Part shown: piece by piece, positions 45,725 to 64,000 of the stretch
How positions within the stretch are numbered: position 1 is the first letter of the stretch
Layout: every line of letters starts with the position of its first letter
NCBI GenBank assembly: GCA_946407725.1
Contig: CAMJPM010000004.1
Coordinates: forward strand, 6,488-70,487
Length of the DNA stretch: 64,000 nt
Direction: 5' to 3'
DNA from: an uncultured Lachnospiraceae bacterium
Lineage (GTDB): Bacteria > Bacillota > Clostridia > Lachnospirales > Lachnospiraceae
The notes under the pieces: model-generated
The model's input: the letters and a program-made list of their open reading frames with translations, nothing else
What the model was told of the DNA's origin: nothing
The model's database searches: none
Made by a program: the position numbers and the translations under genes

Positions 45725-45842
45725 TATAAGACATAAAGAAGGGGTCTGCCTCAATCGGTAGACACTTAACTATGTCAGATAGTGACAGGTTTTCCGGAAG
45801 ATACCGGCTTTCAGGCTGATCAACGGAACGCGCCAAAAAACC

Positions 45843-45878
45843 AAGCCCCCACAGGGCAGATGTCCTGTGGGGGCTTTT
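45843..45878 (+). terminator. Rho-independent terminator
   Basis: AAGCCCCCACAGG-gcagatgt-CCTGTGGGGGCTT followed by TTC, 120 nt after the PPC gene stop. Confidence 0.7.
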
Positions 45879-46174
45879 CAAGAAAAGAAATGGGGTCAAA
45901 CTGTCAAATTACCAGGATTTCATAATGGACTGTATTCTGGTTTCGAAGCCCTTGATTTTTCAAGGGAATATGCGATAATTCAAGTATAAATATTTGGTTG
46001 ATCTTTTTATCATATTGAAGGATGGATGAAAAGATAGTGAGAGAACAAAAAGAATATTGCAGATTGGGTGTAAGTCACTGGAAGTCTCAAGGACGGCAGA
46101 CTATGCCGCTTTCCCTGATTATATAGATGCAACTGTTAAAGAGTTCCGTCTTGAGACGGGGAAAAGAGGTAAAA

Positions 46175-47206: not shown

Positions 47207-47308
47207 GGACCTATGTTATTTTGCAACAGTTTCTAAGGCAATCAAAAATTGCATAGTTAGAAAGCAGAAAGGCCTCCCATAGTCGGAGACTTTTCTTATT
47301 GTATGGAT

Positions 47309-47349
47309 TTCCGAACGCATTTACCGCTTTTGCGTTCGGAAACCTATAG
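47309..47349 (+). repeat. Copy C of the hairpin repeat
   Basis: TTTCCGAACGC-atttaccgctttt-GCGTTCGGAAA (11-bp stem) followed by CCTATAG, 100 nt after the Rpn gene stop. Confidence 0.55.
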
Positions 47350-47479
47350 TATTCTTTCCCGGCACTACACGTTCTGGAATAATAAGGCTTTTGAAAGAAA
47401 GATCCTTAATTAACGATAAGGATGATAGGAAGCCAAACAAAATGACATTGGAAACGTCCCCCCCATTTCTTGCAGGATA

Positions 47480-47488
47480 TGATATAAT
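47480..47488 (+). promoter_or_regulatory. Extended -10 box TGATATAAT upstream of neuC-1
   Basis: Perfect TGnTATAAT 42 nt before ATG 47530. Confidence 0.35.
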
Positions 47489-47529
47489 CAATGACGTTGA
47501 TTAAGAATTGGGTTTAAAGGACAAAGAAT

Positions 47530-48684
47530 ATGAGAAAAATCTGTGTGTTTATAGGAGGAAGGGCAAATTACAGTTCAATTAAGACCGCGATGCGTGCCAT
47601 AAAGAACCATCCTGACCTTACATTGCAGGTCATACTGGCAGGCCAGGCCCTTTCTGATAATTATGGTGATCTGGAGAGCATATTGATTTCAGACGGCTTT
47701 TCCGCCGATGAAAAAGTGCATATGCTTGTGGCCGGGGATAAGCCGATTTCCATGGTTAAGACCGCGGGACTTGGAATGCTGGGAATAGCGGATGCCCTGG
47801 AGCATCTGGATCCGGATTTCCTTGTGGTGGTCGGGGACAGATATGAGGTCATGGCTGCGACAATAGCGGCGGCCTATATGAATATCAGGGTCGCCCATAC
47901 CATGGGAGGCGAGGTGACGGGAACCATAGACGAGAGTATCCGCCATGCCATTACCAAATTTGCCCATGTACATTTCCCTGCCAATAAAGAAGCGGGCGAA
48001 AGGATCATAAAGCTTGGGGAGAGGCCTGAGGATGTCCATGTGGTGGGCTGCCCCAGAGTGGATCATGTACGTGAGCTGCTGGACAGGGATGCTTCCATGC
48101 CCCTTGATATGTATGATGCCTTCGGGGGAGTGGGACCAAAATATGATCTTTCGGAGCCTTTCCTGCTTATTTCACAGCATCCTGTGACGACTGAGTATTC
48201 CGAGGCAAAGGAACAGATCACCAGTACCATAAAAGCCTGTGTGAAGACGGGGCTTAATATTATGATACTCTGGCCCAATGCCGATGCCGGGACAGAGGGA
48301 CTGTCCACGGGTATCCGACGCTACAGGGAGCTGTATCCCGGAGCGAAGATCCATGCCTTCAAGAATCTGCCTACGGATATCTATACCAGGCTTATGAAAA
48401 ACACCGCCTGTCTCGTGGGGAATTCCTCAAGCGGTATAAGAGAGGGTGCATTTATCGGTACTCCCTGCGTAAATGTAGGGACAAGGCAGAACGGGCGTGA
48501 AAGGGGTAAAAACGTGATCGATTCCCCGGTTGAGGAAGAAATGATCTATGAGGCGGTAAAGAAACAGATCTCTCATGGGCCATATGAGACAGAACCGATT
48601 TACGGTGACGGTCATGCTGGTGAGAGGATAGCGGATATCCTCTCCAAAGTGGAGGTTCCCGTTCAGAAGAGGATCGTATACTGA
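47530..48684 (+). CDS. neuC: UDP-N-acetylglucosamine 2-epimerase (hydrolysing), NeuC-type, copy 1
   Basis: RKICVFIGGRANYSS, VVVGDRYE, HTMGGEVTGTIDESIRHAITKFAHVHF and GNSSSGIREG. Confidence 0.85.
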   Translation: MRKICVFIGGRANYSSIKTAMRAIKNHPDLTLQVILAGQALSDNYGDLESILISDGFSADEKVHMLVAGDKPISMVKTAGLGMLGIADALEHLDPDFLVVVGDRYEVMAATIAAAYMNIRVAHTMGGEVTGTIDESIRHAITKFAHVHFPANKEAGERIIKLGERPEDVHVVGCPRVDHVRELLDRDASMPLDMYDAFGGVGPKYDLSEPFLLISQHPVTTEYSEAKEQITSTIKACVKTGLNIMILWPNADAGTEGLSTGIRRYRELYPGAKIHAFKNLPTDIYTRLMKNTACLVGNSSSGIREGAFIGTPCVNVGTRQNGRERGKNVIDSPVEEEMIYEAVKKQISHGPYETEPIYGDGHAGERIADILSKVEVPVQKRIVY

Positions 48685-49391
48685 TGAATATACTGGCTTT
48701 TATTCCGGCAAGAGGCGGATCAAAGGGAATTCACAGAAAGAATATGGCGGATCTTAACGGTCAGCCGCTTTTGAAATATACCTTTGATGCGGCAAAGGAA
48801 AGCCGGCTTATCAACAGGATAATACTTTCTACAGATGATAAGGAATTTGCTGATTATGGCAGGGAGAATGGCATTGAGGTTGCCATGAGGCCGGACAGCC
48901 TGGCCAGTGACACTGCTCTCATGAAGGATGCCATTGCCTATCATTTAGGGGAGCTTTCTAAGGAGGGGTATGATCCGGATATTTTTATACTGCTGCAGCC
49001 CACATCTCCCTTGAGGACCGCTGCGCATATTGATGAGGCCTTATCCCTTCTTATTGAGGATGAAAAGGCGGATGCGCTGGTAAGTGTAAAGGACATTCCC
49101 CATGAATACCTTCCCATGAAGATCATGGAGCTGGATGAAAGCGGCGCCCTGCAATTCTATTATGAGAACGGGGAAAGCTACGTGAACAGGCAGTCCCTTC
49201 CCCATTTTTATGCGAGGAACGGAGCTGCGATCTATGCGGTTTATTCCCGGGTGTTTTTGGAAAAAGGCAGCTTTTACGGAACAAGATGTATCCCCTATCT
49301 TATGAAGGAAGAGGATTCTGTGGACATTGATACGGAATTCGATCTGTTCGTTGCAAGTTGTCTGTTAAACTACAAAAACAGGCTTAACTGA
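48684..49391 (+). CDS. neuA: Acylneuraminate (nonulosonate) cytidylyltransferase
   Basis: ILAFIPARGGSKGIHRKN, LQPTSPLRT and YVNRQSLP. TGATG junction with neuC-1. Confidence 0.85.
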   Translation: MNILAFIPARGGSKGIHRKNMADLNGQPLLKYTFDAAKESRLINRIILSTDDKEFADYGRENGIEVAMRPDSLASDTALMKDAIAYHLGELSKEGYDPDIFILLQPTSPLRTAAHIDEALSLLIEDEKADALVSVKDIPHEYLPMKIMELDESGALQFYYENGESYVNRQSLPHFYARNGAAIYAVYSRVFLEKGSFYGTRCIPYLMKEEDSVDIDTEFDLFVASCLLNYKNRLN

Positions 49392-49397
49392 GACAGG

Positions 49398-51245
49398 ATG
49401 GAAGACAGTATGAATGAAAGGATTAAAGGCAAGGTGGAAACTGTTGTCAATAATAAAAAGAATATCAGCCTGATGATATTTATTTTGTGTCCGGTGCTGA
49501 CCTTTTATCTCACCCAGAACCTTATCGGCAGAGTATTCGGGATGATCAGCGCATCCCTGCAGATCGTCAACTGGATACTTTTCCTTTTGGGGGCTTTCTT
49601 TCTGCTTTTGGTTTTCGGAAAGGGGAAATATGCTCTTCTTTTAGAAATGTTTATTTCCTGGCTTTTCGGTACGGCAAATGCCTATGTATACGAATTCAGG
49701 GGTACATATATCACGCCTCCGGATCTGACAGCGTTAAAGACCGCCGCAAATGTTGCCGGGAACTTTAATTACGCGCCTACGGCAAGAGTCGTTATCGTCA
49801 CCCTTCTTTTTATTTTAATGGCTGTCCTTGTATACCGTTTCTGTGATTTAGAGGTAAAGGTATTTCTGGACAGTCCCGTGAAAAGGGTTCTTGGCGTCAT
49901 TCTTTCTGCCGTGCTTCTTTTTTCGTATGTAAAGCTTATCCAGAATGATACGGTATCTAAAGCGGTGGGTATGCATGATTCCCTTATGAATGTCAATAAT
50001 GTGGCTGAGAAAAACGGTATTTTCGCCGGTTTTGCGTTTAAGATGAAGTACCTTCGTGAAAGTAAACCAAAGGGCTACAGCGCCGAAGCCGAGAAGGAAA
50101 TACTGGATGGCATTACGGTAGAGGGAGAGGTGCCTGAAGACCTGCCGGATATCGTTGTCATAATGGATGAGGCTTTTTCTGATCCGAAGCTGAATGTGGA
50201 TTTTGAAACAAATATGGATTATATTCCTTTTATCCGCTCCCTCGGGAAACCCGGGGACAATACTGTTACGGGAATCTTAAATGTATCGGTGAACGGGGGG
50301 AAGACACCCAATACGGAATTTGAGTTCCTGACAGGAAATACCATCGGCTTCCTGACCTTTGAAGCAATACCCTTCCAGACCTATCTTAAAAACCCGAAGG
50401 ATGGCCTGGGGTGGTATATGCAGTCTCTGGGATATGATACGATCGCGATGCATCCCTTTGATGCCGATGGCTGGGACAGGATAACAGCCTGGCCTAATCT
50501 GGGCTTTTCCACAGTGAGGTTCAAGGATTACTTTAAGGAATATGATCCTGAGCTTGTCAGGGACTATATTTCTGATAAATCTCATTTTGAAAGGATAATA
50601 GGTGAGCTTGATAACAGAAAGGATGCGGATAAGCCGCTTTTTATCTTTAATGTTACCATGCAGAACCATTCGGGATACGGAGGGGATCCTGATAATTTTG
50701 AGCGCTCCGTTACCCTTGAAGGGGTAGGCGACCATGAAAGGAAGGAAGTTAAAAGGCTTGAAAACTATCTTTCCCTAATGCATTATACGGATGACGCATT
50801 TAAGTATCTTCTGGAAAGCCTTAGTAAATCTGACAGGAAGACACTGGTGGTACTGTTTGGAGACCATCAGCCTTCTGCTTCCGTATTAAGTGAGATTTAT
50901 GCCCTTAACGGAATGGATGCGGAAAATCTTTCCTGGGAAGAGGATATGAAGAGGTTCCGTGTGCCCTTTGTGATCTGGGCGAATTACGATATAGAGGAAA
51001 AAACTGATGTGGAGACATCCGCGAACTATCTGGGAAATCTTATGCTGAAGACCGCCGGGATACCTCTTACGCGTTACAGGACCTTTATTGACGATTTCAG
51101 CAGGGAGTACCCCGTCATCACATATGAAAGATATGTGGACAGCGAAGGGAATGCGTATCCGATGGACAGATCAGCGCAGGAGCTGCAGGAATATAACAAA
51201 ATGGAATATTACGAGATATTTGATGACAATGACTCCTATTATTAA
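49398..51245 (+). CDS. LtaS-like sulfatase-domain transferase, paralog 2
   Basis: PDIVVIMDEAFSD, GGKTPNTEFEFLTG, FNVTMQNHSGY, LFGDHQP and VPFVIWANYDI. Confidence 0.8.
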   Translation: MEDSMNERIKGKVETVVNNKKNISLMIFILCPVLTFYLTQNLIGRVFGMISASLQIVNWILFLLGAFFLLLVFGKGKYALLLEMFISWLFGTANAYVYEFRGTYITPPDLTALKTAANVAGNFNYAPTARVVIVTLLFILMAVLVYRFCDLEVKVFLDSPVKRVLGVILSAVLLFSYVKLIQNDTVSKAVGMHDSLMNVNNVAEKNGIFAGFAFKMKYLRESKPKGYSAEAEKEILDGITVEGEVPEDLPDIVVIMDEAFSDPKLNVDFETNMDYIPFIRSLGKPGDNTVTGILNVSVNGGKTPNTEFEFLTGNTIGFLTFEAIPFQTYLKNPKDGLGWYMQSLGYDTIAMHPFDADGWDRITAWPNLGFSTVRFKDYFKEYDPELVRDYISDKSHFERIIGELDNRKDADKPLFIFNVTMQNHSGYGGDPDNFERSVTLEGVGDHERKEVKRLENYLSLMHYTDDAFKYLLESLSKSDRKTLVVLFGDHQPSASVLSEIYALNGMDAENLSWEEDMKRFRVPFVIWANYDIEEKTDVETSANYLGNLMLKTAGIPLTRYRTFIDDFSREYPVITYERYVDSEGNAYPMDRSAQELQEYNKMEYYEIFDDNDSYY

Positions 51246-52128
51246 AGATAAATGTAAAGGCTTTGATATTTTTGTCCGGATATCCGCCGTGCTTTTCTGG
51301 ATACTGGTTCTTTCAGGAATAATATGGCTCGCAGTGCATGCTTTCAGTGGCAAGGGCGTTTTCCGAAGAGGGAGCAGGGATTATTCCTGGACAGAGAATT
51401 CGATCTACATATGCCACGCTCTGGGCGGGATAGACGACAGGGCATATACCAACAGCCGGGAAGCCCTGGAAAGGTCATATGAAAAGGGATACAGGAATAT
51501 TGAGACAGACTTTGAATATTCATCTGACGGTGAACTGGTACTCATCCATAACTTTAAGAAGAAAACATTGAAGGAGCTTTTTAGCATTGAGACGGAGGAA
51601 GAGGAAATGCCCCTGTCCCTTTCTGAATTCCGTTCCCTTAAGGTATATGGTGAATACACCACCATGACCCTTGAGGAATTATTTTCTTTTATGGCGGATC
51701 ATAAGGATATGTATCTGATCCTTGACGGGAAGTATGATGATGAGGCAATGGTTAAGAAGGAATACAGTGACCTCATAAAGCTTGCCGGGGGAAAAGATCC
51801 GGAAATACTTAACAGAATGGTGCCGCAGATTTATAATGAGTCAATGTATGACTGGATACAGGAGCTTTATGACTGGAAATCCGTTATTTTCACTTGGTAT
51901 AAGCTGGATGATGACACCATGGATCCCGAAGAGATCTTTAAATTCTGCGCGGAAAGGGATATCAGGGTATGCACCATGGAGGATGAAAAGGAAAATCCCC
52001 TTATTGACAAAACCGCAGGAAAATACGGGGTGATGGTATATGTCCATACAATAAATTCAGAGGGCAGGAGGGACCGTCTCCTGTCTTCGGGAGTCCATGG
52101 CATATATACGGATTTTCTTTATGACTGA
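51223..52128 (+). CDS. Membrane-anchored divergent GDPD/PI-PLC-like domain protein, paralog 2
   Basis: TM, then ICHALGGIDDRAYTNSREALERSYEKGYRNIETDFEYSSDGELVLIHNF, VPQIYNESMYDW and GIYTDFL. The ORF-track N-terminus (51088) overlaps the upstream gene; ATG 51223 or 51229 is preferred. Confidence 0.6.
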   Translation: MTMTPIIKDKCKGFDIFVRISAVLFWILVLSGIIWLAVHAFSGKGVFRRGSRDYSWTENSIYICHALGGIDDRAYTNSREALERSYEKGYRNIETDFEYSSDGELVLIHNFKKKTLKELFSIETEEEEMPLSLSEFRSLKVYGEYTTMTLEELFSFMADHKDMYLILDGKYDDEAMVKKEYSDLIKLAGGKDPEILNRMVPQIYNESMYDWIQELYDWKSVIFTWYKLDDDTMDPEEIFKFCAERDIRVCTMEDEKENPLIDKTAGKYGVMVYVHTINSEGRRDRLLSSGVHGIYTDFLYD

Positions 52129-52178
52129 AGCGAACTATACATGGCATGGCTCTCGGAATGATTGCCGGAGATAAGGTT

Positions 52179-53969
52179 ATGGAAAATGATATGGAAAACA
52201 AAACTGAGATCAAAAAACTGTTATATTTCATACTGATACCCGTATTGATCTTTTACGGGGCGCAGTTCAGCCTGGGGGAGAGCTTCTCGGAGATGCCGGC
52301 CGGGCTTCATATAGTGAATATCCTTTTTCTGGAATTTTTTTCCTTTCTCTTTCTCTCTGTGATCGGGAATAGTGTAGCGGTATTATGTATAGAATGTGTG
52401 TCCCTGACGGTATTTTCCATAGCCGATGCTTATGTGAGGCAGTTCAGGGGGGATTTCATAATGCCCTGGGACCTTCTTTCCTTCAAAACCGCTTTTTCTG
52501 TTGCAGGCAATTATGACTATGTGATCTCTGACGGAATGCGGCGCAGCATTATTTCCGCCGTGATGATACTCATATTGATATTTGTACAGAAACCGGATGC
52601 AAAAATTGTTATAAAAAGTATAAAATCCAGGGCGGCCGTTGGTCTGTTATCCCTTTTGCTTATTTTTTCCCTTGCTGCGTTCATACAGCATCCTGTGGGG
52701 ATCGCATTTCTTGACGTGGAGGATTCGGAATTCGGAATCAAGCTTAATCCGATAGAAAACGGTATTGTCGGCGGGTTTATTTTTGAAACCAAATATCTGC
52801 TTGTGAAAAAGCCTGAAGGGTATTCCGCTTCGGAGGCAAAGAGGATCCTGGATGAGCAGGCTGTTGATTACGGGGCGGTTCCGGAGGAATTGCCGGATAT
52901 CCTTGTATTTATGGATGAGACCTTTTCGGATCCGGCTGTGCTCGCCCCTTTTGAAACAAATATTGATTATATGCCTTTTATGCATTCTCTTTTGGAGGGC
53001 AAGGAGGATACGATCTCGGGACATGCCCATGTGTCCGTTAAGGGCGGCGGCACGGCAAATTCTGAATTTGAATTCCTGACTTCCCATTCAATGGCCTTTC
53101 TTCCAAAGGGCAGCTCGCCGTATCAGCAGTACGTTAAAAAACCTATTGATTCTGTGGTAAGACACCTTGAAAGACTTGGCTACAGGAGCCTTGGCGCCCA
53201 TCCCTTCCATTCCGCCAACTGGAGCAGAAACACAGCCTATCCTAATCTGGGATTCATGGAGTATCATTTTAATTCGTATTTTGAGCCCCTGGATCTGAAA
53301 AAAGTGCGGAATTATGTTTCGGATGAGGGATTTATGCAGCAGACCGCTGATGATGTTCTGAATATGGAGGCACCGGTCTTTTCCTTTAATGTTACAATGC
53401 AGAATCACTCCGGATACGGAAAGGATTTTGATAACCTGCCTCTTTCCGTATATGTGAAGGGCACGGATCCCGCCTCTTCAGATTCAGCAGAGAAGATAAG
53501 CCGGTATCTCTCACTTATAAAGACAAGTGATGAGGCCTTAGAAAAGCTTATTGAAAGGTATAAGAAGACTGACAGGAAGACGATGATCGTATTTTTCGGG
53601 GATCATCAGACTGATGACGAGATAATGCAGGATATTTATGAATTAAATGGAATGGATTATAATTCCCTTACTGAGGAACAGTTGTGGAATACCTATATCG
53701 TTCCTTTTGCCATCTGGGCGAATTTTGATATAGAAGAGAAGACCGGTGTGGAGACCAGCCTTAATTATCTTATGAATATTGCCCTGAAGGCCGCCGGAAT
53801 ACCACTTGATGCCTACAGGATGAAAACCGACGGGTATTCCTTAAAGTATCCGGTGATAACAGCCCATCATATCATTGACAGTGAGGGGAATGATCTTCTG
53901 CCTAAGGATGTGGGGGATGATCTCCATGAGTATAACTGCCTGGAATACTATAAGATGTTTGATGAATAG
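52179..53969 (+). CDS. LtaS-like sulfatase-domain transferase, paralog 3
   Basis: PDILVFMDETFSD, GGGTANSEFEFLTS, FNVTMQNHSGY, FFGDHQT and VPFAIWANFDI. Start 52179 or 52191. Confidence 0.8.
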   Translation: MENDMENKTEIKKLLYFILIPVLIFYGAQFSLGESFSEMPAGLHIVNILFLEFFSFLFLSVIGNSVAVLCIECVSLTVFSIADAYVRQFRGDFIMPWDLLSFKTAFSVAGNYDYVISDGMRRSIISAVMILILIFVQKPDAKIVIKSIKSRAAVGLLSLLLIFSLAAFIQHPVGIAFLDVEDSEFGIKLNPIENGIVGGFIFETKYLLVKKPEGYSASEAKRILDEQAVDYGAVPEELPDILVFMDETFSDPAVLAPFETNIDYMPFMHSLLEGKEDTISGHAHVSVKGGGTANSEFEFLTSHSMAFLPKGSSPYQQYVKKPIDSVVRHLERLGYRSLGAHPFHSANWSRNTAYPNLGFMEYHFNSYFEPLDLKKVRNYVSDEGFMQQTADDVLNMEAPVFSFNVTMQNHSGYGKDFDNLPLSVYVKGTDPASSDSAEKISRYLSLIKTSDEALEKLIERYKKTDRKTMIVFFGDHQTDDEIMQDIYELNGMDYNSLTEEQLWNTYIVPFAIWANFDIEEKTGVETSLNYLMNIALKAAGIPLDAYRMKTDGYSLKYPVITAHHIIDSEGNDLLPKDVGDDLHEYNCLEYYKMFDE

Positions 53970-55341: not shown

Positions 55342-56496
55342 ATGAGAAAAATCTGTGTGTTTCTTGGCGGAAGAGCCAATTACAGTTCAATAAAATCTGC
55401 CATGAGAGCCATTAAAAACCATCCTGACCTTGAGCTTCAGGTCATACTGGCGGGGCAGGCCCTCTCCGATAATTACGGAGATCTGGAAAGTATAATTATT
55501 TCAGACGGCTTTTCTGCCGACGAAAAAGTGCATATGCTGGTGGCCGGGGATAAGCCCATATCCATGGTGAAAACTGCGGGACTGGGAATGCTGGGTATCG
55601 CTGATGCCCTTGAGCATCTCAATCCTGATTTTCTCGTGGTTGTCGGGGACAGATATGAGGTCATGGCTGCCACCATTGCGGCGGCCTACATGAATATCAG
55701 GGTCGCCCATACCATGGGAGGAGAGGTTACAGGCACCATTGATGAGAGTATCCGCCATGCCATAACCAAGTTTGCCCATGTGCATTTTCCCGCAAATAAA
55801 GAAGCGGGAGAGCGGATATTAAAGCTGGGAGAGAGGCCGGAGGACGTGTTTGTGGTGGGCTGTCCCAGAGTGGATCACGTAAAGGAGCTCCTGGACAGGG
55901 ATTCCTCAATGCCCCTTGATATGTATGAAGCCTTCGGTGGAGTTGGACCGAAATTTGATCTTAATGAGCCATTCCTGCTCATATCACAGCATCCGGTTAC
56001 AACGGAATATACCGAGGCAAAGGAACAGGTGACAAGAACAATAAACGCATGTGTGAAGACCGGCCTTAATATCATGATACTCTGGCCCAATGCCGATGCG
56101 GGAACCGAAGGGCTTTCAACCGGTATAAGGCGCTACAGGGAGCTGTTCCCGGAAGCGAAGATCCATGCATTTAAGAATCTGCCCACAGATATTTATACCA
56201 GGCTCATGAAAAACACAGCCTGCCTTGTGGGCAATTCCTCCAGCGGCATAAGGGAGGGGGCATATATCGGAACCCCATGTGTAAATATAGGAACAAGACA
56301 GAACGGGCGTGAAAGAGGGGGGAACGTGATCGACGCTGCAGTCAATGAGGATGAGATCTATGCGGCTGTAAAGAAGCAGATAGAACACGGACCCTATTCT
56401 TCAGAGCCTATATACGGCGACGGACATGCGGGGGAAAAGATTGCGGATATCCTCTCAAAGGTTGAGGTGCCTGTACAGAAAAGGATCGTTTATTGA
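55342..56496 (+). CDS. neuC: UDP-N-acetylglucosamine 2-epimerase (hydrolysing), NeuC-type, copy 2
   Basis: 384 aa, colinear with copy 1. I counted about 31 amino-acid differences by hand, alongside many synonymous DNA differences. Confidence 0.85.
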   Translation: MRKICVFLGGRANYSSIKSAMRAIKNHPDLELQVILAGQALSDNYGDLESIIISDGFSADEKVHMLVAGDKPISMVKTAGLGMLGIADALEHLNPDFLVVVGDRYEVMAATIAAAYMNIRVAHTMGGEVTGTIDESIRHAITKFAHVHFPANKEAGERILKLGERPEDVFVVGCPRVDHVKELLDRDSSMPLDMYEAFGGVGPKFDLNEPFLLISQHPVTTEYTEAKEQVTRTINACVKTGLNIMILWPNADAGTEGLSTGIRRYRELFPEAKIHAFKNLPTDIYTRLMKNTACLVGNSSSGIREGAYIGTPCVNIGTRQNGRERGGNVIDAAVNEDEIYAAVKKQIEHGPYSSEPIYGDGHAGEKIADILSKVEVPVQKRIVY

Positions 56497-57502: not shown

Positions 57503-59716
57503 ATGAGACATATTAACAGAAAAAAGATCCTCTGTATTTCCGTTATGATGCCAGTAATCTTTTTACTGGCATGTCTTTTTTTGTGCTTATATAAGGAGAA
57601 GGGAAGAAGCGGAAAAGAGATATACATAAATGAGGTATGCTCCTCAAATATTGGCGCTTACATAAATGAGGATGGAGAAAGTCCCGATTACATTGAGATA
57701 TTTAACGGAGGGGAGAGAGAGACCGACCTTAAGGGATGGAAGCTGTCCACAGGAAAGAATAAGGGGGAGGTCTTTTTGTTTCCGGAGATTATTGTTCCGG
57801 CCCGGGGCTTTGTGGTCATAGATAAGGATGATGAAGGAAATAAAATATCCCTTTCCTCAAAGGGGGCAAGGCTCATCCTTTCGGATCCCGGGGATAATAT
57901 CATTGACAGCATGGAGGTTCCCACCCTTAAATATAATACGGTTTACGGACGGGTGAATGACGGCGGGAAACAGCTTAAAAGACTTACACCAAGTCCCCTC
58001 TTTTCAAATTCAGGCGCAAAGGAGGTTAGTTTCCCCTCCCTTAAAAGTCCTGAATTTTCGGCGGAGAGCGGGTTTTATGACGAGCCCTTCATGCTTTCAC
58101 TCACGTCTCCCGAAGGAGGTGAAATAAGATACACTCTGGATGGAAGCGAGCCCGGTGAAGGATCTTTCATTTATACTTCCCCGATACAGCTTACGGACCC
58201 GTCGGATAACAACGATAAATGGTCCGTCAGCAGGAATGCGTCGGTATATCTCTATGATTATTATGAAAGGTTCGGCTTTCATATCCCTACCGAAAAAACC
58301 GACAAGTGCAACGTGGTAAGGGCAAAGGTTTACGGCAGAAACGGTGAAGTGAGCGACACCGTAACAAAGTCTTATTTTGTTGGATTTAATAAAAAGCCCG
58401 GGTATGACGGTATAAAGATCCTTTCCCTGGTCTCCGACCCCGACGGGTTTTTCGGGAGTGAAAAAGGCATATATGTACTGGGGGATATCGGACTTGAAGA
58501 TCTTCATGAGCGTTACAATGAAAGTGAGGAGGCGTCGGAGCTTATAAAAAAAGATCCCTCCCTGCCTCTTGACGGTTCGGTCAAGATAGGGGATATAGGC
58601 TATAACAGAGGCTCTGACGGAAATTATATGCAGCACGGGCCTAAGTGGGAGAGGGAGGCTGATATTACTCTTTTTTACCCTGAGGATCCGGGAAAACCTG
58701 AGCAGCAGAAAGCGGGCATCAGGATAAAGGGCAACGCATCAAGGCAATATCCCGGAAAGAGCTTTAATATATATGCGAGAAATGCTTACAGTGGAAAGGA
58801 CAGCTTTGATATCTCTTTTTTTGACGGGGCGGAAAACAGGAAAAAGATATGCCTCTCATCCGGAGGAAACGATTTTTATACGCTGTCAAAGGATCTTTTC
58901 ATCTCCGGAAGGATAAGGGACTGCGGCCTTGAGGTCGCTTCCGCAGGATTTTTTGATCCGGTCTTTCTCTTCTTAAACGGTGAATTCTGGGGTACTTATA
59001 TAATCAGCGAGAGGCTTGATGAGGATTACTTTGCCTCCGAATACGGCGTGGACAGGGATAATGTAATATTTATAAAAGAGGGGAACGTGGCAGCGGGCAG
59101 GAAAGATGATATTCATTACTACTATGTCTTTCTGTCCCTGTATGAGGATAAGGACTTTTCAGATCCCGGGGAATACGGAAAATTCTGTGAAGAGGTGGAT
59201 ATTACAAGCCTGATGGAGTATTATTCCCTGAGGGTATATTCCGACTACGGCATTGACTGGCCCCACATGAATTACGGCATCTGGCGCTGCCGTGACAGGG
59301 AAGAGGGGCCTTACGGGGACTGTAAGTGGAGGTTTGTAAATTTTGACAACAATAATACCCTTAAATATGAAAAGATCGATACCGACATGATGGATGTACT
59401 TTTTAACGGAACAAAGTACTTCGGGCCGGACGGGCTTTTTATTTCCCTGATGAAAAACGATGAGTTCAGAAAAGATTTTTACCGGGTGTTTAAGAGGGTG
59501 TCAGAAAATGTCTTCCTTTCCGGCGAAGCAGGGGAAACCTATGAAAATATCAGACATATCCTGAAGGCGCCGGTGTCCCGGAACTATAAACGGTATTTTA
59601 AGTCTGACAGCGGATTTGATGATGATTTTTTTGAAAAGGAAACTCAGAGTATACTTGACTTTATCCGGGAGAGAAACGGCTTTATCGAAGACAGGGTCAG
59701 GGAATACTGCAGGTAG
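57503..59716 (+). CDS. Membrane-anchored lamin-tail-domain (LTD) + CotH kinase-family protein
   Basis: N-terminal TM. LTD pattern INEVCSSN...DYIEIFNGGERETDLKGWKLS. CotH-like GIRIKGNASRQYPGKSFNIY, LFLNGEFWGTYIISERLDEDYF and NFDNNN. Confidence 0.7.
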   Translation: MRHINRKKILCISVMMPVIFLLACLFLCLYKEKGRSGKEIYINEVCSSNIGAYINEDGESPDYIEIFNGGERETDLKGWKLSTGKNKGEVFLFPEIIVPARGFVVIDKDDEGNKISLSSKGARLILSDPGDNIIDSMEVPTLKYNTVYGRVNDGGKQLKRLTPSPLFSNSGAKEVSFPSLKSPEFSAESGFYDEPFMLSLTSPEGGEIRYTLDGSEPGEGSFIYTSPIQLTDPSDNNDKWSVSRNASVYLYDYYERFGFHIPTEKTDKCNVVRAKVYGRNGEVSDTVTKSYFVGFNKKPGYDGIKILSLVSDPDGFFGSEKGIYVLGDIGLEDLHERYNESEEASELIKKDPSLPLDGSVKIGDIGYNRGSDGNYMQHGPKWEREADITLFYPEDPGKPEQQKAGIRIKGNASRQYPGKSFNIYARNAYSGKDSFDISFFDGAENRKKICLSSGGNDFYTLSKDLFISGRIRDCGLEVASAGFFDPVFLFLNGEFWGTYIISERLDEDYFASEYGVDRDNVIFIKEGNVAAGRKDDIHYYYVFLSLYEDKDFSDPGEYGKFCEEVDITSLMEYYSLRVYSDYGIDWPHMNYGIWRCRDREEGPYGDCKWRFVNFDNNNTLKYEKIDTDMMDVLFNGTKYFGPDGLFISLMKNDEFRKDFYRVFKRVSENVFLSGEAGETYENIRHILKAPVSRNYKRYFKSDSGFDDDFFEKETQSILDFIRERNGFIEDRVREYCR

Positions 59717-59719: not shown

Positions 59720-62287
59720 ATGGCTATAAAGAATTTTTTTGAAAATAAATATGTAAAGACGGCACTTTTTTTCCTGTTGCCCGTTCTGGAGTTTTTTGTC
59801 TGCCAGTATGCGATGACGGATGACTTTGACAAGCTCTCTCCCCTTCTTGTGGTGGTTAATGTGATCTTCGGGGAGCTTTTAACCCTGCTTCTCTGCTTTA
59901 TCACGGGAAGCGCAAAGGTGTCGTCAAGAATTTCGGTGGTGTTCTTCTGGCTTATCGGGGTTGTTAATGCCTACGTCTACAGATTCAGGGGGACTTATAT
60001 ACGGCCCTGGGATCTCTTTTCCCTCAGAACAGCCTTAAATGTGGCGGATAATTTCGATTATTCTCCCGGCAGGAATATAATCATTTCCACCTGCGCCGCA
60101 GTGATACTCTTTCTTCTTGCGGGATTTCTTAAGAGTGAGGAGGGTCATGAAAAGAAAAAGGTTCCTGTGTGCGTTATTGGAGCCCTTTCGTCATTACTGC
60201 TGATATTTGTTTTATCCTTTGCGCTCCGGCAGGACAGGGTCATAGATGGACTTGGAATCTATACCACCCAGTTTGATTCCAAGGGGATGATAAGGAATAA
60301 CGGGGTGCCGGTGACCTTTATGTATCAGATGAAGTACCTGAAGGTTGAAAAGCCTGAGGGATACAGCGATAAGGAGGCAAAGGAGGTCTTAAGCTCCTAT
60401 TCCCCGGAGAAGAGTAAAACCGATGAATACCCCGATATTCTGGTGTTTATGGATGAGGCTTTTTCGGATCCCGCTGTAGACGGGGATTTTTCCACCAATA
60501 TCGATTACATGCCCTTCATCCACTCCCTGGAAAAGGGTGCGGAAAACACCGTTACGGGATATGTAAATGTATCTGTAAACGGCGGAAATACTCCGAATTC
60601 GGAATTTGAGTTTCTGACAGGAAACACCATGGGATTTCTCCCTGAGGGCAGCATAGCTTTTCAGCAATATGTTTTAAGAAACATGGAATCACTGCCGGCA
60701 TATCTGAAGAGATTTGGTTACAGCACCCTTGCTTCCCATCCCTACAGGGCAAGCGGCTGGGACCGCCCGAGAGTATGGAAGCTGCTCGGCTTTGATGAAT
60801 TACTCTTTGATGACTATTTTGATCAGAAGAACCCGGAAAGGGTGAGAAGATACGTTTCGGATGAATCCTGCTTTGATATAGTGGGGGACAGGGTTCTTGA
60901 ACTTGGAGATGACGATCCGGTATTTTCCTTTAATGTGACAATGCAGAACCATTCAGGCTACAAAGGGGATCAAAGTGATATGGACCAGAGTGTTTCCGTG
61001 GAATGTGACGGTGAAAAAAGCGCCGGGGAGAAACAGATGGATACATATCTGTCCCTTATGAAATACACGGACAGTGCATTTGAGAAGCTTATAGACAGAT
61101 ACAGGGATTCCGAAAGAAAAACCATCATAGTCTTTTTCGGGGACCACCAGCCCGATCCCGCTGTGTTTGACCTTATGTGGAATCAGAACGGGGTGGACAG
61201 GGAAAGTATTTCAGGAGAAAAATATGCGCATCTTTTCAGGGTTCCCTTTGTGATATGGGCAAATTTTGATATAGATGAAGCGTCAGGGGTTGAGACCAGC
61301 CTTAATTATCTCGGAAATATGGTATTAAAGCAGGCCGGCATCAGACTTTCGGAATACAGGTGTTTCCTTGATGAATATTCCGGAAAATATCCGGTGATAT
61401 CCGCCATACGGTATGTGGATTCAGACGGGAACAGTGTCATGAAGGAGGACTGGGGGGACAGCCTGCAGGAATACAGGAAGCTCCAGTACTATAAGATGTT
61501 TGATGACGATACCTACGAAAAGAAAAAATATGATTTTTCCTATGACTGGATAAAACAGGGAAACATCGCCCATGCATTGGGTGCTGCACCGGATGGTACA
61601 CTGATGACCAATTCAAAGGAGGCTTTTATCCATAATTACAATAAGGGTTTCCGGATCTTTGAGGCTGATCTCATGTATACTGCTGATGATGTCCTGATGT
61701 GCGGCCACCGGTGGGACGATGTCCTGGGAGAAGAGCTTTATGAGGAAAGGGGAGCCCAGTCATCCACGGCTGAAATGACATGGGAGGAATTAAAAGAGTA
61801 CGGGATACAGGGAAGGTTTACACCTTTGAATGTAAAAGATCTTTTAGAACTCATGAAGGAATATCCCGATTCGTATATTGTGCTGGATATGAAAAGGACA
61901 GAGCCGGAAAGCATCGAAGAGATCTACAGTGATCTATATGAAAATGCCCTTTCGGCGGACCCTGAGGTTTTAGACCGCATTATCCCCCAGCTCTATAATG
62001 ACTCAACTCTTGATATGCTGATGGAGATCTATCCCTTTAAATCCTGCCTCTATTCCTGCTATAAGACAAAGGCGGAGAAATTCCCGGAGTATGTGGCGGG
62101 ATACGCAAAAGAAAAGGGTATAAAGGTGATCACGGTGGATCACAACAAGGAAAGTGAGGAGTGGAACAGCTATCTAAAGAAAAACGGGATGTGGATCTAC
62201 TATAACACCGTAAATGATGGAGCAGAGGAAGATGAGCTTAAAAAACGTGGGGTTCACGGGATATATACGGACCTGCTGGCGGAGTGA
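59720..62287 (+). CDS. Fusion protein: LtaS-like sulfatase-domain transferase (paralog 4) + GDPD/PI-PLC-like domain (paralog 3)
   Basis: PDILVFMDEAFSD, GGNTPNSEFEFLTG, FNVTMQNHSGY and FFGDHQP. After YYKMFDDDTYE (near nt 61500-61535) it continues directly into DFSYDW..IAHALGAAPDG..FEADLMY..IPQLYNDSTLDM..GIYTDLL. Confidence 0.8.
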   Translation: MAIKNFFENKYVKTALFFLLPVLEFFVCQYAMTDDFDKLSPLLVVVNVIFGELLTLLLCFITGSAKVSSRISVVFFWLIGVVNAYVYRFRGTYIRPWDLFSLRTALNVADNFDYSPGRNIIISTCAAVILFLLAGFLKSEEGHEKKKVPVCVIGALSSLLLIFVLSFALRQDRVIDGLGIYTTQFDSKGMIRNNGVPVTFMYQMKYLKVEKPEGYSDKEAKEVLSSYSPEKSKTDEYPDILVFMDEAFSDPAVDGDFSTNIDYMPFIHSLEKGAENTVTGYVNVSVNGGNTPNSEFEFLTGNTMGFLPEGSIAFQQYVLRNMESLPAYLKRFGYSTLASHPYRASGWDRPRVWKLLGFDELLFDDYFDQKNPERVRRYVSDESCFDIVGDRVLELGDDDPVFSFNVTMQNHSGYKGDQSDMDQSVSVECDGEKSAGEKQMDTYLSLMKYTDSAFEKLIDRYRDSERKTIIVFFGDHQPDPAVFDLMWNQNGVDRESISGEKYAHLFRVPFVIWANFDIDEASGVETSLNYLGNMVLKQAGIRLSEYRCFLDEYSGKYPVISAIRYVDSDGNSVMKEDWGDSLQEYRKLQYYKMFDDDTYEKKKYDFSYDWIKQGNIAHALGAAPDGTLMTNSKEAFIHNYNKGFRIFEADLMYTADDVLMCGHRWDDVLGEELYEERGAQSSTAEMTWEELKEYGIQGRFTPLNVKDLLELMKEYPDSYIVLDMKRTEPESIEEIYSDLYENALSADPEVLDRIIPQLYNDSTLDMLMEIYPFKSCLYSCYKTKAEKFPEYVAGYAKEKGIKVITVDHNKESEEWNSYLKKNGMWIYYNTVNDGAEEDELKKRGVHGIYTDLLAE

Positions 62288-62466: not shown

Positions 62467-64000
62467 ATGGCAAACAAATGGGTCTACACCTTCAAAGAGG
62501 GTAACATGTCCATGAGAAATCTGCTGGGAGGCAAGGGCGCAAACCTTGCGGAAATGACCGAGATAGGTCTTCCGGTACCCCAGGGCTTCACCATTACTAC
62601 AGAGGCCTGCACCCAGTATTATGAGGACGGCAGAAAGATCAACGACGAGATCATGAGCCAGGCTATGGAAGGCGTTGCCTGGATGGAAAAGGAAAACGGA
62701 AAGAAGTTCGGCGATCTCGATAATCCCCTTCTGGTTTCAGTGCGTTCCGGTGCCCGGGCATCCATGCCGGGTATGATGGATACAATTCTCAATCTTGGTC
62801 TTAATGATGACGTTGTTGCGGCCATGATAAAGGGAAATCCCGATCCTGCGTTTGAGCGTTTTGTATATGATTCATACCGCCGTTTCATCCAGATGTTCTC
62901 TGATGTGGTTATGGAAGTGGGCAAGAAGTATTTCGAGCAGCTCATCGACAAGATGAAAGAGACAAAGGGCGTTAAATTTGACGTAGACCTTACAGCTGCA
63001 GACCTTAAGGAGCTTGCCGAGCAGTTCAAGGCCGAATACAAGAACCAGCTGGGAAAAGACTTTCCTTCAGACCCTGTAGAGCAGCTGAAGCTTGCCATAG
63101 AAGCAGTGTTCCGCTCATGGGATAACCCGAGGGCAAATGTTTACCGCCGTGACAATGATATCCCTTACAGCTGGGGAACAGCAGTAAACGTAATGCCTAT
63201 GGTATTCGGAAACTTAAATAACGATTCCGGAACAGGCGTGGCCTTTACCCGTGATCCCGCCACAGGAGAAAAGAAGCTCATGGGTGAGTTCTTAAAGAAC
63301 GCCCAGGGTGAAGACGTGGTTGCAGGCGTGCGTACACCCATGCCCATAGCACAGATGGAGCAGGAATTCCCTGAAGCATATAAGCAGTTCATAGAGGTCT
63401 GCGACACTCTTGAAAATCACTATCATGACATGCAGGACATGGAGTTCACAGTAGAGAACAAGAAGCTCTATATGCTCCAGTGCCGTAACGGTAAGAGGAC
63501 AGCCCAGGCTGCCCTGAAGATCGCCTGTGATCTGGTGGATGAGGGACATAAGACAGAGGAAGAGGCTGTTGCCATGATCGATCCCAGAAATCTGGACACC
63601 CTCTTACATCCCCAGTTTGATGCTGCTGCCCTTAAGGCTGCAACACCTATAGGAAAGGGTCTTGGCGCTTCTCCCGGAGCTGCCTGCGGAAAGATCGTAT
63701 TTACAGCTGATGATGCGGTTGCATGGGCAGATAAGGGCGAAAAGGTTATCCTTGTACGTCTGGAGACCAGCCCCGAGGATATCACGGGAATGAAGTCAGC
63801 AGAAGGAATTCTCACTGTCCGTGGCGGAATGACCAGCCATGCCGCAGTTGTGGCCCGCGGAATGGGAGAGTGCTGTGTATCCGGATGCGGCGATATTGCA
63901 ATGGATGAAGAGAACAAGAAGTTTACCCTGGCCGGAAAGGAATTCCACGAGGGAGACTTTATCTCAATAGACGGTACCACAGGTAATATCTATGACGGAG
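62467..64000 (+). CDS. ppdK: Pyruvate, phosphate dikinase (5' part; continues beyond the window)
   Basis: Not in the ORF track because there is no stop in the window. My translation from ATG 62467 (GGAGG at 62454) gives MANKWVYTFKEGNMSMRNLLGGKGANLAEMTEIGLPVPQGFTITTEAC...VRSGARASMPGMMDTILNLGLND...RGGMTSHAAVVARGMG (catalytic His loop). Confidence 0.9.
   Translation, partial: MANKWVYTFKEGNMSMRNLLGGKGANLAEMTEIGLPVPQGFTITTEACTQYYEDGRKINDEIMSQAMEGVAWMEKENGKKFGDLDNPLLVSVRSGARASMPGMMDTILNLGLNDDVVAAMIKGNPDPAFERFVYDSYRRFIQMFSDVVMEVGKKYFEQLIDKMKETKGVKFDVDLTAADLKELAEQFKAEYKNQLGKDFPSDPVEQLKLAIEAVFRSWDNPRANVYRRDNDIPYSWGTAVNVMPMVFGNLNNDSGTGVAFTRDPATGEKKLMGEFLKNAQGEDVVAGVRTPMPIAQMEQEFPEAYKQFIEVCDTLENHYHDMQDMEFTVENKKLYMLQCRNGKRTAQAALKIACDLVDEGHKTEEEAVAMIDPRNLDTLLHPQFDAAALKAATPIGKGLGASPGAACGKIVFTADDAVAWADKGEKVILVRLETSPEDITGMKSAEGILTVRGGMTSHAAVVARGMGECCVSGCGDIAMDEENKKFTLAGKEFHEGDFISIDGTTGNIYDG

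Follow-up and report, generated by a model that had tools for sequence, protein, structure and literature searches.

Does the final gene of this glycopolymer locus truly unite two surface enzymes that are encoded by separate, neighboring genes elsewhere in the same locus, and what could the united enzymes do to the cell envelope? An earlier note had read the gene as a fusion of an LtaS-like transferase with a GDPD-like domain, had argued that the two domains act as one machine, and had rated them the best candidate in the window for a new envelope-modification system. The DNA analyzed here (the window; 64,000 nt) belongs to a gut or rumen Lachnospiraceae bacterium, and the locus itself comprises roughly 55 kb.

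One intact gene joins an LtaS-like transferase to a GDPD domain

The gene at positions 59720 to 62287 (plus strand, as are all features below) is one intact frame of 855 aa, with no interruption. According to the ORF, the Pfam matches and an AF2 model, it is predicted to encode a five-TM LtaS/GacH-like phosphoglycerol transferase with a C-terminal GDPD-fold phosphodiesterase. Five hydrophobic helices (aa 14-168; 59759 to 60223), detected in a hydropathy scan and present as helices in the AF2 model, make up an LtaS-type membrane domain. They are followed by the extracytoplasmic sulfatase-fold transferase domain (60437 to 61519; Pfam, alignment and Foldseek), whose LtaS-homologous tail extends up to E600, by the fusion junction K601-K603 (61520 to 61528), and by a GDPD-fold TIM-barrel domain (aa 604-855; 61529 to 62284; Pfam, alignment, AF2 and Foldseek). 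With an intact frame and both Pfam domains above cutoff, the fusion described in the earlier note was confirmed. The product is one membrane protein, with both predicted catalytic domains on the cell exterior.

The junction was placed by comparison with the standalone paralogues in the window and by AF2 pLDDT. Immediately before their stop codons, the standalone LtaS-like proteins read ...YYEMFEDTDNYE (609 aa from ATG 37116; 37116 to 38945), ...YYEIFDDNDSYY (615 aa; 49398 to 51245) and ...YYKMFDE (607 aa; 52146 to 53969). One standalone GDPD-like protein (424 aa; 35840 to 37114) consists of a single N-terminal TM anchor, a spacer of ~130 aa and the GDPD domain (TM anchor...DFDYDWAEKSPYIAHALGG), and the other (301 aa; 51223 to 52128) of a TM anchor and the GDPD domain (TM anchor...RDYSWTENSIYICHALGG). 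Across the join, the fusion reads ...YYKMFDDDTYE-KKK-YDFSYDWIKQGNIAHALG: upstream of K601-K603 lies the counterpart of the standalone LtaS C terminus, and downstream lies the YDFSYDW motif, which comes after the TM anchor in the standalone GDPD-like proteins. The C termini had been quoted exactly in the earlier note. The AF2 model of the full-length protein had a pLDDT of 93 and a pTM of 0.81, with values of 86-88 in the linker region (aa 591-610); in this model, the short linker is placed confidently and appears to hold the domains together.

The unfused genes are also tightly arranged. The GDPD-like gene ending at 37114 lies upstream of the LtaS-like gene starting at 37116, with a 1-nt gap. 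The LtaS-like gene ending at 51245 opens a Sulfatase-GDPD-Sulfatase triple, in which ATG 51223 of the GDPD-like gene is located 23 nt inside the preceding gene, and the GDPD-like stop at 52128 is followed by an LtaS-like ATG at 52146 or 52179. The spacings given earlier (35840/37116, 49398/51223 and 51223/52179) were found as described. Each GDPD-like gene of the window (3/3) touches an LtaS-like gene, an adjacency that exceeds chance, and the start/stop overlaps of the paired genes suggest co-translation. The locus also contains a gene for a YfhO-family GT-C membrane protein (988 aa; 40304 to 43270) and, 3 nt upstream of the fusion, one for a CotH-family protein with an N-terminal TM segment and LTD, Fn3_assoc and CHB_HEX_C_1 domains (57503 to 59716; CotH stop at 59716, fusion ATG at 59720). 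The fusion is the final gene of the locus; ppdK starts after it, from about 62474.

The transferase domain resembles GacH

The N-terminal part has the LtaS/GacH-type architecture, in which a multi-pass membrane domain precedes a sulfatase-fold domain. Pfam Sulfatase (PF00884) matched at aa 240-541 (E value of 1.8e-32; 113 bits versus a cutoff of 25). The predicted catalytic and ligand residues are E246, T291 (the nucleophile; nt 60590-60592), W347, R349, H411, D475 and H476. Among them, E246, T291, D475 and H476 align to GacH E488, T530, D711 and H712, the Mn2+ ligands and Thr nucleophile, which are equivalent to E255, T300, D475 and H476 of S. aureus LtaS (10.1101/337519). GacH binds glycerol-phosphate (GroP) by H580, R589 and H650 (10.1101/337519); residues of the fusion also align to R589 and H650, and its HPYRASGWDR and TMQNH segments align to HPASANNFNR and TMQNH of GacH, in line with GroP binding. 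The E246/T291/D475/H476 set is conserved in 37-40 of the ~40 alignment rows having a residue there and was kept in 7/8 aligned fusions, the exception being P0249 with Ala for D475. R349 and H411 are conserved in the alignment, but one fusion (P0344) varies at the W347/R349 ligand positions.

GacH was the best match of the transferase domain both by sequence (4e-15) and by structure: Foldseek returned GacH 5u9z with a TM score of 0.80 (E value of 1.6e-18; rmsd of 3.5 Å), while LtaS entries reached 0.61-0.66. As modelled, the fold is thus closest to GacH, nearer than to LtaS. The likeness to the streptococcal enzymes GacH/SccH, which place sn-Gro-1-P on rhamnopolysaccharide side chains, comprises the Glu/Thr/Asp-His set and the GroP ligands (10.1101/337519) as well as the gene placement, in a locus for wall polysaccharide and next to tailoring enzymes of the GT-C type. 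However, strict GacH members have eleven TM helices and share no less than 33% identity with GacH (10.1101/337519), whereas the fusion has five, as in LtaS, and is about 19% identical (Foldseek alignment). Furthermore, it carries a C-terminal GDPD domain, while the streptococcal loci have no described GDPD partner.

With LtaS/LtaP/YfnI, the fusion shares the five-TM plus extracellular sulfatase-fold architecture, the catalytic residues, the presumed phosphatidylglycerol donor with diacylglycerol (DAG) as by-product, and a YfhO neighbor; in B. subtilis, YfhO glycosylates LTA. It differs from them by the weaker structural match, by a score of only 68.6 bits against the LtaS equivalog NF053595 (cutoff 970), and by the presence of four LtaS-like paralogues within one polysaccharide locus. 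In NCBIfam, no curated family covered the transferase domain, the GDPD domain, CotH, or the 495-aa and 507-aa neighbors.

The GDPD domain belongs to a distinctive clade

The C-terminal domain matched Pfam GDPD (PF03009) at aa 630-851 (E value of 2.7e-10; 41.2 bits versus a gathering threshold of 23.6) and was modelled with a pLDDT of 93. Foldseek aligned it to many GDPD structures (E values of 5e-13 to 1e-8; TM scores of 0.6-0.75). The structure and profile matches included GlpQ, S. aureus lysoPG-PLD (8ghh/8ghi), lysoplasmalogen-PLD and the GP-PDE domain of phage K gp155; the identity to GlpQ in the Foldseek alignments was only 13-15%. No significant match came from a PDB search by sequence alone with the isolated GDPD domain, and the score against the NCBIfam GDPD equivalog was far under its cutoff.

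The conserved residues of the domain are H618, A619, E648, D650, H663, D723, K725, R753, Q757 and Y759. The 43 clade members all share H618, E648, D650 and D723; H663 is present in 41/43 and K725 in 42/43. The GDPD catalytic His pair and the acidic metal ligands are therefore present, the third metal ligand being Asp, not Glu. In the T. tengcongensis GDPD, the corresponding residues are H17, E44, D46, H59, E119 and K121, and the offsets between them agree with the profile matches. Residue 619 is Ala in 42/43 sequences and Gly in one, and the clade thus has H-A-x-G in place of the canonical H-R-G, along with D-x-K in place of E-x-K. At the sequence level, these motifs make it a separate and distinctive GDPD clade. 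Since the catalytic columns were kept in 8/8 aligned fusions, and judging from the residues of the transferase, both domains of the fusion look active.

The GlpQ teichoicases of B. subtilis and S. aureus and the GP-PDE domains of phage K (gp155) and phi812 share the TIM barrel and the His/Glu/Asp/His/Lys core with the fusion. However, they are only 13-20% identical to it and carry H-R-G/E-x-K. In addition, GlpQ is secreted and the phage GP-PDE is virion-borne, whereas the GDPD domain studied here is membrane-anchored or fused. GlpQ-type teichoicases are Ca2+-dependent exo-hydrolases. Both they and the phage domains target polymers of glycerol-phosphate in the Gram-positive wall; GlpQ is specific for sn-Gro-3-P ends and leaves PG-derived Gro-1-P polymers uncut (PMC7086022).

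The pairing is recurrent and facultative

A full-length fused orthologue (P0002; 61% identity) was found in a syntenic contig from an independent run (SRR33674992), with a linker that differs from, and is longer than, that in the window. The gene order there is GDPD-Sulfatase-YfhO-NeuB-NeuC-NeuA-epimerase-CotH-fusion. P0002 was the only close full-length relative. The fused LtaS domain is also the positional orthologue of two unfused proteins (P0005 and P0013), whose genes likewise adjoin CotH and ppdK, and a CotH gene adjoins the orthologous LtaS gene in L001, L086, L087 and L088 as well. The Sulfatase-GDPD-Sulfatase triple recurs in L086 and L087, and in L090 the orthologues of the 35840/37116 pair (P0124 and a Sulfatase gene) overlap by 8 nt.

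More distant fusions comprised six Sulfatase->GDPD clusters with <50% identity (P0212, P0249, P0268, P0344, P0260 and P0272) and two proteins in the reverse order, GDPD->Sulfatase: the cluster representative P0238 and L083:1584-4346. By crude hydropathy, P0238 has five hydrophobic segments between its two domains, both of which are expected outside. The seven further clusters and the L083 protein were drawn from NCBI, JGI, ENA and Logan assemblies. In a quick NJ tree of the GDPD domains, which has long branches and was read for non-monophyly and not for counting fusion events, the fusions occupied scattered positions and were not monophyletic. Inter-domain contacts were informed by eight fusion sequences only.

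To place the clade in its genomic context, an alignment trimmed to 12 domains was used in a genome scan, which yielded 80 species-representative loci with neighbors within +/-6 kb. A sulfatase-domain gene was present in 13/80 loci and was directly adjacent or fused in all 13 of them, none being further away. These loci span Lachnospiraceae, Peptostreptococcaceae, Acetoanaerobium, Erysipelotrichaceae and Tumebacillus, and sulfatase-domain genes were the sole partner of the clade recurring across several Firmicutes families. Co-occurrence thus extends beyond this genome, as the earlier note had demanded, and in both domain orders. Because the fusion is genuine and conserved, the adjacency recurrent and the catalytic residues kept, a functional link is a sound Rosetta-stone inference, and since their genes adjoin or are joined in numerous other Firmicutes, the two enzymes probably act on one and the same polymer.

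The partnership is facultative. An obligate one was rejected on three grounds: 67/80 loci had no sulfatase neighbor, a search with the GDPD domain alone returned 84 standalone relatives and no fusion, and P0132-type loci have amidase and DEAD-helicase genes nearby and no LtaS. The claim that the two domains form one machine therefore holds only in part: the recurrent coupling supports a functional link, but not an obligate unit. Frequent neighbors of the GDPD-like genes elsewhere are amidase, LCP and sugar-transferase genes, a general cell-wall context. Conversely, LtaS-like relatives at 42-45% identity occur in Sulfatase->YfhO pairs lacking a GDPD gene; elsewhere, this LtaS-like subfamily has YfhO as its most frequent direct partner, and no YfhO match was found within 6 kb of the GDPD clade across the 80 loci. 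Other fusion partners of the GDPD module are YfhO (L088), ILEI, TIG and Cu-amine-oxidase-N (Cu_amine_oxidN1) modules.

A possible writer and eraser of glycerol-phosphate

The charge of the cell surface, its binding of cations, the targeting of autolysins, the adsorption of phages and recognition by innate immunity are all governed by GroP on LTA and wall polysaccharides. Phosphatidylglycerol-derived GroP is added by LtaS, which polymerizes it, and by GacH, which makes single additions; we know of no enzyme described as removing or trimming it. A full-text literature search also retrieved no described LtaS-GDPD link, LTA-specific GDPD or remover of PG-derived GroP. Such a remover has a concrete candidate in this distinctive GDPD clade, given its repeated independent coupling to LtaS-like enzymes.

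We propose, with a probability of about 0.5 and by analogy with WhyD, that the fusion is a writer and eraser of phosphatidylglycerol-derived GroP on a wall glycopolymer. The transferase domain would take sn-glycerol-1-phosphate from phosphatidylglycerol via a covalent Thr intermediate, with release of DAG, and would then attach it to a hydroxyl group of the wall glycopolymer that the locus produces. The GDPD domain would hydrolyze GroP phosphodiesters of the same polymer at the membrane surface and could so limit, trim or remodel what the transferase adds. The fusion, the overlapping neighbor genes and the YfhO fusion may be alternative routes for keeping the phosphodiesterase beside extracytoplasmic tailoring enzymes. 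The DAG-kinase gene directly downstream of the fusion in L089 points indirectly to phosphatidylglycerol as donor. Among the window ORFs scanned there were no TagD/TagF-type CDP-glycerol genes, which suggests that the transferase would be the only GroP source in the locus. That one domain trims what the other installs, as the earlier note had it, may apply; however, coupling a transferase to an enzyme that hydrolyzes its product would seem futile in the absence of regulation.

Since GlpQ does not cut PG-derived sn-Gro-1-P ends, the specificity proposed for the GDPD domain would be new. More tentatively, the whole H-A-x-G/D-x-K clade might be the missing phosphodiesterase for PG-derived sn-glycerol-1-phosphate, in LTA-type chains and GacH-type decorations. 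If so, a dedicated extracytoplasmic module for writing, erasing and glycosylating would set GroP charge and length on Firmicutes surface polymers. The pairing also hints at a tailoring module of three parts (LtaS-like, YfhO and GDPD-like) in abundant gut and rumen Lachnospiraceae, the surface polymers of which are, to our knowledge, almost uncharacterized.

Alternative explanations

The GDPD domain could instead be a general wall or teichoic acid phosphodiesterase whose own TM anchor was replaced by the C terminus of a membrane neighbor, with no mechanistic coupling. We regard this as rather unlikely, yet it fits several observations: most clade members stand alone with their own TM anchor and lack an LtaS neighbor, their usual surroundings are those of general cell-wall genes, and the attachment of the module to non-LtaS partners suggests that fusion may mainly provide a membrane or wall tether. 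It fits less well with sulfatase genes as the only partner recurring across families and an immediate neighbor in 13/13 cases, with fusions in both orders at scattered tree positions, with the signs of co-translation, or with a linker that is short and confidently modelled.

Improbable in our view is that the substrate of the GDPD domain is a membrane lipid, for instance lysophosphatidylglycerol, phosphatidylglycerol or a glycerophospho-glycolipid, and that the domain, like a lysoPLD, manages the donor pool or clears by-products. The lysoPG phospholipase D of S. aureus and lysoplasmalogen-PLD are among its structural and profile matches, the DAG kinase adjoining a fusion links lipid recycling to such loci, and the D-x-K motif and missing H-R arginine presumably recall the PLD-like branch of the superfamily. 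However, lipid-acting matches were no better than GlpQ or phage teichoicase domains, the GDPD domain lies beyond the sulfatase domain along the chain and is elsewhere attached to wall-binding modules, and LtaS chemistry yields DAG, not a phosphodiester.

It is very improbable that the GDPD domain, instead of hydrolyzing, moves the phosphoryl group of newly added GroP, for example with loss of glycerol, so that a cyclic sugar phosphate or a phosphodiester bridge between chains results and the two domains perform successive steps of one modification. Such consecutive steps would be a classic Rosetta-stone case, and the invariant replacement of H-R by H-A is a sign of an altered active site; moreover, GDPD-superfamily enzymes can use cyclic phosphate intermediates, and phosphoglycerol transferase II of E. 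coli redistributes GroP between glucans. Nevertheless, all residues required for ordinary hydrolysis are kept, and we know of no transesterified or cyclic product described for Lachnospiraceae polymers.

An assembly, frameshift or gene-calling artefact, which the A-rich run (GAAAAGAAAAAATAT) at the junction and the single close full-length relative might suggest, was rejected as almost certainly wrong, because the independently sequenced orthologue P0002 is fused through another linker, further fusion clusters exist in four assembly sources, and both other frames at the junction hold stops while the fused frame runs into a well-conserved domain.

Relation to known envelope-tailoring enzymes

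The proposed writer and eraser has a precedent in WhyD of S. pneumoniae, a protein of seven TM helices whose extracellular GlpQ domain liberates wall teichoic acid (PMC9208761). The architectures are alike in having a polytopic membrane part and then an extracellular GDPD/GlpQ-type domain (PMC9208761), but WhyD's membrane part does not belong to the LtaS family of enzymes. OpgB (MdoB) of E. coli, likewise a membrane enzyme of the sulfatase family, transfers GroP from phosphatidylglycerol onto a glycan, and a second activity of OpgB redistributes GroP. In OpgB, both activities reside in one sulfatase-fold domain, whereas the fusion has a separate GDPD domain.

The earlier note had been aware of no described LtaS-GDPD module, yet the architecture is already present in public databases, where IMG automatically names the fusions [quoted passage not shown] Given this annotation, the facultative pairing and the WhyD precedent, the fusion is better regarded as a variant of envelope-tailoring enzymes already known than as a new system of envelope modification. 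The "MdoB-like" in the IMG name recalls OpgB.

An LtaS-GDPD fusion with an independent fused orthologue

The ORF at 59720-62287 (+) is a single unbroken frame of 855 aa. Pfam places a Sulfatase domain at aa 240 to 541 (E 1.8e-32) and a GDPD domain at aa 630 to 851 (E 2.7e-10, exceeding the gathering score). The standalone transferases of the window end in ...YYEMFEDTDNYE, ...YYEIFDDNDSYY, and ...YYKMFDE, while the standalone GDPD-like proteins have a single N-terminal hydrophobic anchor followed by DFDYDW..IAHALGG or RDYSW..ICHALGG. Across the join at K601 to K603 (nt 61520-61528), where the DNA has an A-run, the fusion reads ...YYKMFDDDTYE-KKK-YDFSYDWIKQGNIAHALG. The linker is short, with 23 residues from the last LtaS motif to the catalytic His of the GDPD domain, and has a pLDDT of 86 to 88 (AF2). 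The peptide strings quoted in the earlier note for all three protein types match the window translation exactly.

Pfam detected the Sulfatase domain in three standalone LtaS-like genes (37116-38945, 49398-51245, and 52146-53969) and the GDPD domain in two standalone genes (35840-37114 and 51223-52128). The close spacing reported for them was borne out: the gap at 37114/37116 is 1 nt, and the genes at 51223/51245 overlap by 23 nt. The third LtaS-like gene begins 17 to 50 nt past the preceding gene, and the CotH gene lies just 3 nt upstream of the fusion.

Among the 120 best whole-protein relatives, the sole end-to-end match was P0002 (862 aa; 61% identity); the others were ~600-aa LtaS-like proteins, mainly from Lachnospiraceae. 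P0002 stems from a separate sequencing run and lies on a 66.6-kb contig syntenic with the window, in the order 501-aa protein, GDPD (424 aa), Sulfatase (614 aa), YfhO, NeuB, NeuC, NeuA, epimerase, CotH, fusion. Its linker is in frame, yet differs in length and sequence from that of the window fusion. An assembly or frameshift artefact was rejected, since an independent run yielded a fused protein in a syntenic contig; together with the unbroken ORF, this orthologue confirms that the fusion is genuine. Of the LtaS-like proteins lacking a fusion, the two closest (P0005 and P0013; 55 to 56% identical) are placed beside CotH and ppdK in two relatives, and because this is the same position, the fused transferase is their positional orthologue. 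Its GDPD domain was gained in an ancestor shared by the window organism and that of P0002.

Both domains of the fusion retain catalytic residues

The best PDB sequence match of the transferase domain was GacH (4e-15), followed by LtaS of Listeria, S. aureus, and B. subtilis. The full-length AF2 model (pLDDT 93, pTM 0.81) superimposed on GacH with a TM score of 0.80 (rmsd 3.5 Å) and on LtaS/LtaP with 0.61 to 0.66. By alignment, the Mn ligands and nucleophile of GacH (E488/T530/D711/H712) correspond to E246, T291, D475, and H476 of the fusion, and the glycerol-phosphate ligands to R349 and H411 (residue roles in GacH: 10.1101/337519). The fusion has five TM segments, as in LtaS, whereas GacH has eleven. 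It scores far below the NCBIfam LtaS cutoff and belongs neither to GacH in the strict sense nor to the LtaS equivalog. We thus assign it to an uncharacterized subfamily of LtaS-family enzymes.

The GDPD domain (model pLDDT 93) resembles GDPD TIM barrels with TM scores of ~0.6 to 0.75, including B. subtilis GlpQ, S. aureus lysoPG-PLD, and the phage K gp155 GP-PDE; phage GP-PDE domains gave the top profile-search scores. H618, E648, D650, D723, and Y759 are invariant over 43 clade members, and H663, K725, R753, and Q757 are nearly so. The domain shares the GDPD fold but lacks the arginine of the H-R-G motif: the residue following the first His is Ala in 42 of the 43 members instead of the canonical Arg, and the third metal ligand is Asp instead of Glu. 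We conclude that the fusion is a genuine membrane protein and that its two extracytoplasmic catalytic domains both look intact.

Transferase and GDPD domains are repeatedly coupled

With the GDPD part alone as the query, the matches comprised 84 standalone GDPD proteins (~180 to 460 aa) and no fusion. An exhaustive phmmer search of 1.84 billion cluster representatives was performed with aa 440 to 855, a query spanning the junction so that fusions rank high. Fusions made up 8 of ~135 GDPD-bearing clusters among the best 150 matches. Pfam confirmed these fusions, with the Sulfatase→GDPD order in P0212, P0249, P0268, P0344, P0260, and P0272, and the GDPD→Sulfatase order in P0238 and a 920-aa ORF (1584-4346) of locus L083. 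When scored with an HMM built from the clade of the window, each fused GDPD domain reached 140 to 310 bits. Fused forms do not cluster together in an NJ tree of 151 domains and show two domain orders and differing membrane parts; several independent fusion events must therefore have taken place.

The checked GDPD catalytic residues are kept in all eight aligned fusions and all checked transferase residues in seven of eight, the exceptions being Asp→Ala in P0249 and variation at ligand positions in P0344. Thus, both domains appear to be under selection as enzymes.

In the reverse-order proteins, the N-terminal GDPD domain is followed by TM helices and then the sulfatase-fold domain, so that five TM segments (crude hydropathy) separate two domains both expected outside; P0238 additionally has an Ig-like domain. 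Other proteins (P0211, P0227, P0243, and L024:4912-6957) join the GDPD-like module to ILEI (PF15711) and TIG domains, at lengths of 680 to 880 aa, or to Cu_amine_oxidN1, at ~400 aa. These partners are probably wall- or glycan-binding tethers.

For gene adjacency, one genome per GTDB species was scanned with a trimmed clade alignment, giving 80 loci with 6-kb flanks, mainly from Paenibacillus, Anaerotignum, Peptostreptococcus, and Lachnospiraceae, among others. A sulfatase-domain gene was detected by tblastn and a sulfatase-domain HMM in 13 loci, in every case as a direct neighbor or fused (same-strand and downstream in five, same-strand and upstream in three, divergent in four, fused in one). 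No such gene lay farther out in the 6-kb flanks of any of the 80 loci, which provides an internal control for chance. The 13 loci come from Lachnospiraceae, Acetatifactor, Eubacterium, Peptostreptococcaceae, Acetoanaerobium, Erysipelotrichaceae, and Tumebacillus. Genetic coupling between the two domain families is thus recurrent. The earlier proposal of one two-domain machine therefore stands in that the coupling recurs elsewhere, fused in both orders or adjacent, but not as a general rule, since 67 of the 80 loci have no sulfatase neighbor within the flanks. The commonest neighbors there are Amidase_3, LCP-like, sugar transferase, and GT2 genes, a general cell-wall context.

YfhO is a third partner

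In a Lachnospiraceae MAG (GCA_017453865.1; L088:849-5210), a 1453-aa YfhO (GT-C) protein carries a C-terminally fused GDPD module and a second, partial GDPD-like stretch at aa ~1027 to 1181; directly behind it come two genes for LtaS-like proteins and one for CotH. The Sulfatase-GDPD-Sulfatase triple of the window (49398-53969) is also present, unfused, in the related loci L086/L087, of which L086 belongs to a cultured relative (GCA_000622025.1). Remoter members of the LtaS-like subfamily (42 to 45% identity) form a two-gene Sulfatase→YfhO unit with no GDPD, and the P0085 cluster of this type contains 235 member sequences on >100 contigs. Such conserved units (L091, L092/L093, L094; P0038, P0085, P0035) are found in gut Lachnospiraceae, where they are not part of any large polysaccharide locus. 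The picture is of a common core of LtaS-like protein and YfhO, to which the GDPD-like enzyme is accessory: it can stand alone beside the core, be fused to LtaS in either order, or be fused to YfhO.

In a Wzt/GT2 polysaccharide locus (L089), an LtaS_N-Sulfatase-GDPD fusion is flanked by YfhO and, immediately downstream, a diacylglycerol kinase gene (DAGK_cat; L089:9397-10290). Diacylglycerol kinase recycles diacylglycerol, and its presence fits a phosphatidylglycerol donor that leaves diacylglycerol as a by-product.

Proposed function

The window is a glycopolymer locus of ~55 kb with nucleotide-sugar genes, GT2 and GT8 glycosyltransferases, a Wzx-type flippase, TupA-like ATP-grasp enzymes, a PMT_2-like GT-C, two YfhO genes (13084-15897 and 40304-43270), and sialic-acid synthesis genes (two NeuC, one NeuA, one NeuB). 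It encodes four LtaS-like domains, three GDPD-like domains, and one CotH-family protein. The window ORFs scanned included no CDP-glycerol genes of the TagD/TagF type; the LtaS-like enzymes are therefore the sole predicted locus-encoded source of glycerol-phosphate diesters.

By analogy with GacH/LtaS, the transferase would move sn-Gro-1-P from phosphatidylglycerol to a hydroxyl of the glycopolymer, and the GDPD domain may hydrolyze glycerol-phosphate diesters on the same polymer, trimming or erasing them. The nearest precedent is WhyD, a GDPD that is held in the membrane and tailors a polymer of the cell surface (PMC9208761). GlpQ of the canonical type acts on sn-Gro-3-P ends only and does not degrade LTA (PMC7086022), so the GDPD partner of a phosphatidylglycerol-dependent transferase would need an opposite or different specificity. 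Speculatively, the invariant H-A-x-G/D-x-K changes could reflect this. A Gro-1-P-specific eraser coupled to its own writer is the higher-value reading, which we hold tentatively (probability roughly 0.3). Rivals to the trimming or erasing role are that the fusion merely exchanges one membrane tether for another, that the GDPD domain is lipid directed with a lysoPLD-like role, or that it transesterifies or cyclizes its substrate.

A full-text literature search found no paper linking LtaS-family with GDPD enzymes and no description of an LTA-specific GDPD. LtaS-GDPD fusions are already labeled by automated annotation: two fusion clusters bear the IMG name [quoted passage not shown]

Other features of the locus

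Downstream of the fusion, the N-terminal part of ppdK (62474-64000, running past the window end) marks the end of the glycopolymer locus, likewise in L086 and L088. Two minus-strand ORFs antisense to ppdK (62619-63098 and 63468-63980) are probably spurious. The CotH-family protein (57503-59716; 737 aa) has an N-terminal TM segment followed by LTD, CHB_HEX_C_1, Fn3_assoc, and CotH domains, and in four related loci its gene is likewise kept beside the last LtaS-like gene, in either orientation.

Compared with the syntenic P0002 contig (L090/L001), the window has an additional block (44144-53969) between YfhO and NeuB. It comprises a PPC-domain protein, a PDDEXK_2 transposase-like gene (46127-47206), NeuA, the Sulfatase-GDPD-Sulfatase triple, and a second NeuC (92% aa and 83% nt identity to 55342-56496), and looks like an inserted cassette resembling the L086 arrangement.

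Between an LtaS-like gene and YfhO, a 495-aa protein (38911-40398) has no hydrophobic segment and no match in Pfam or NCBIfam. Upstream of the GDPD gene, a 507-aa protein (34333-35856) matches PMT_2 (GT-C-like) weakly and contains seven hydrophobic segments; its 501-aa orthologue is conserved in L090. Five further genes (19837-20859, 24670-25773, 25842-26645, 31615-32391, and 32400-33359 on the minus strand) comprise two TupA-like ATP-grasp, one sugar-transfer-associated ATP-grasp, and two weak QueC-like (PP-loop) types, suggesting that the polymer is decorated with amino acids or amides (teichuronopeptide-like).
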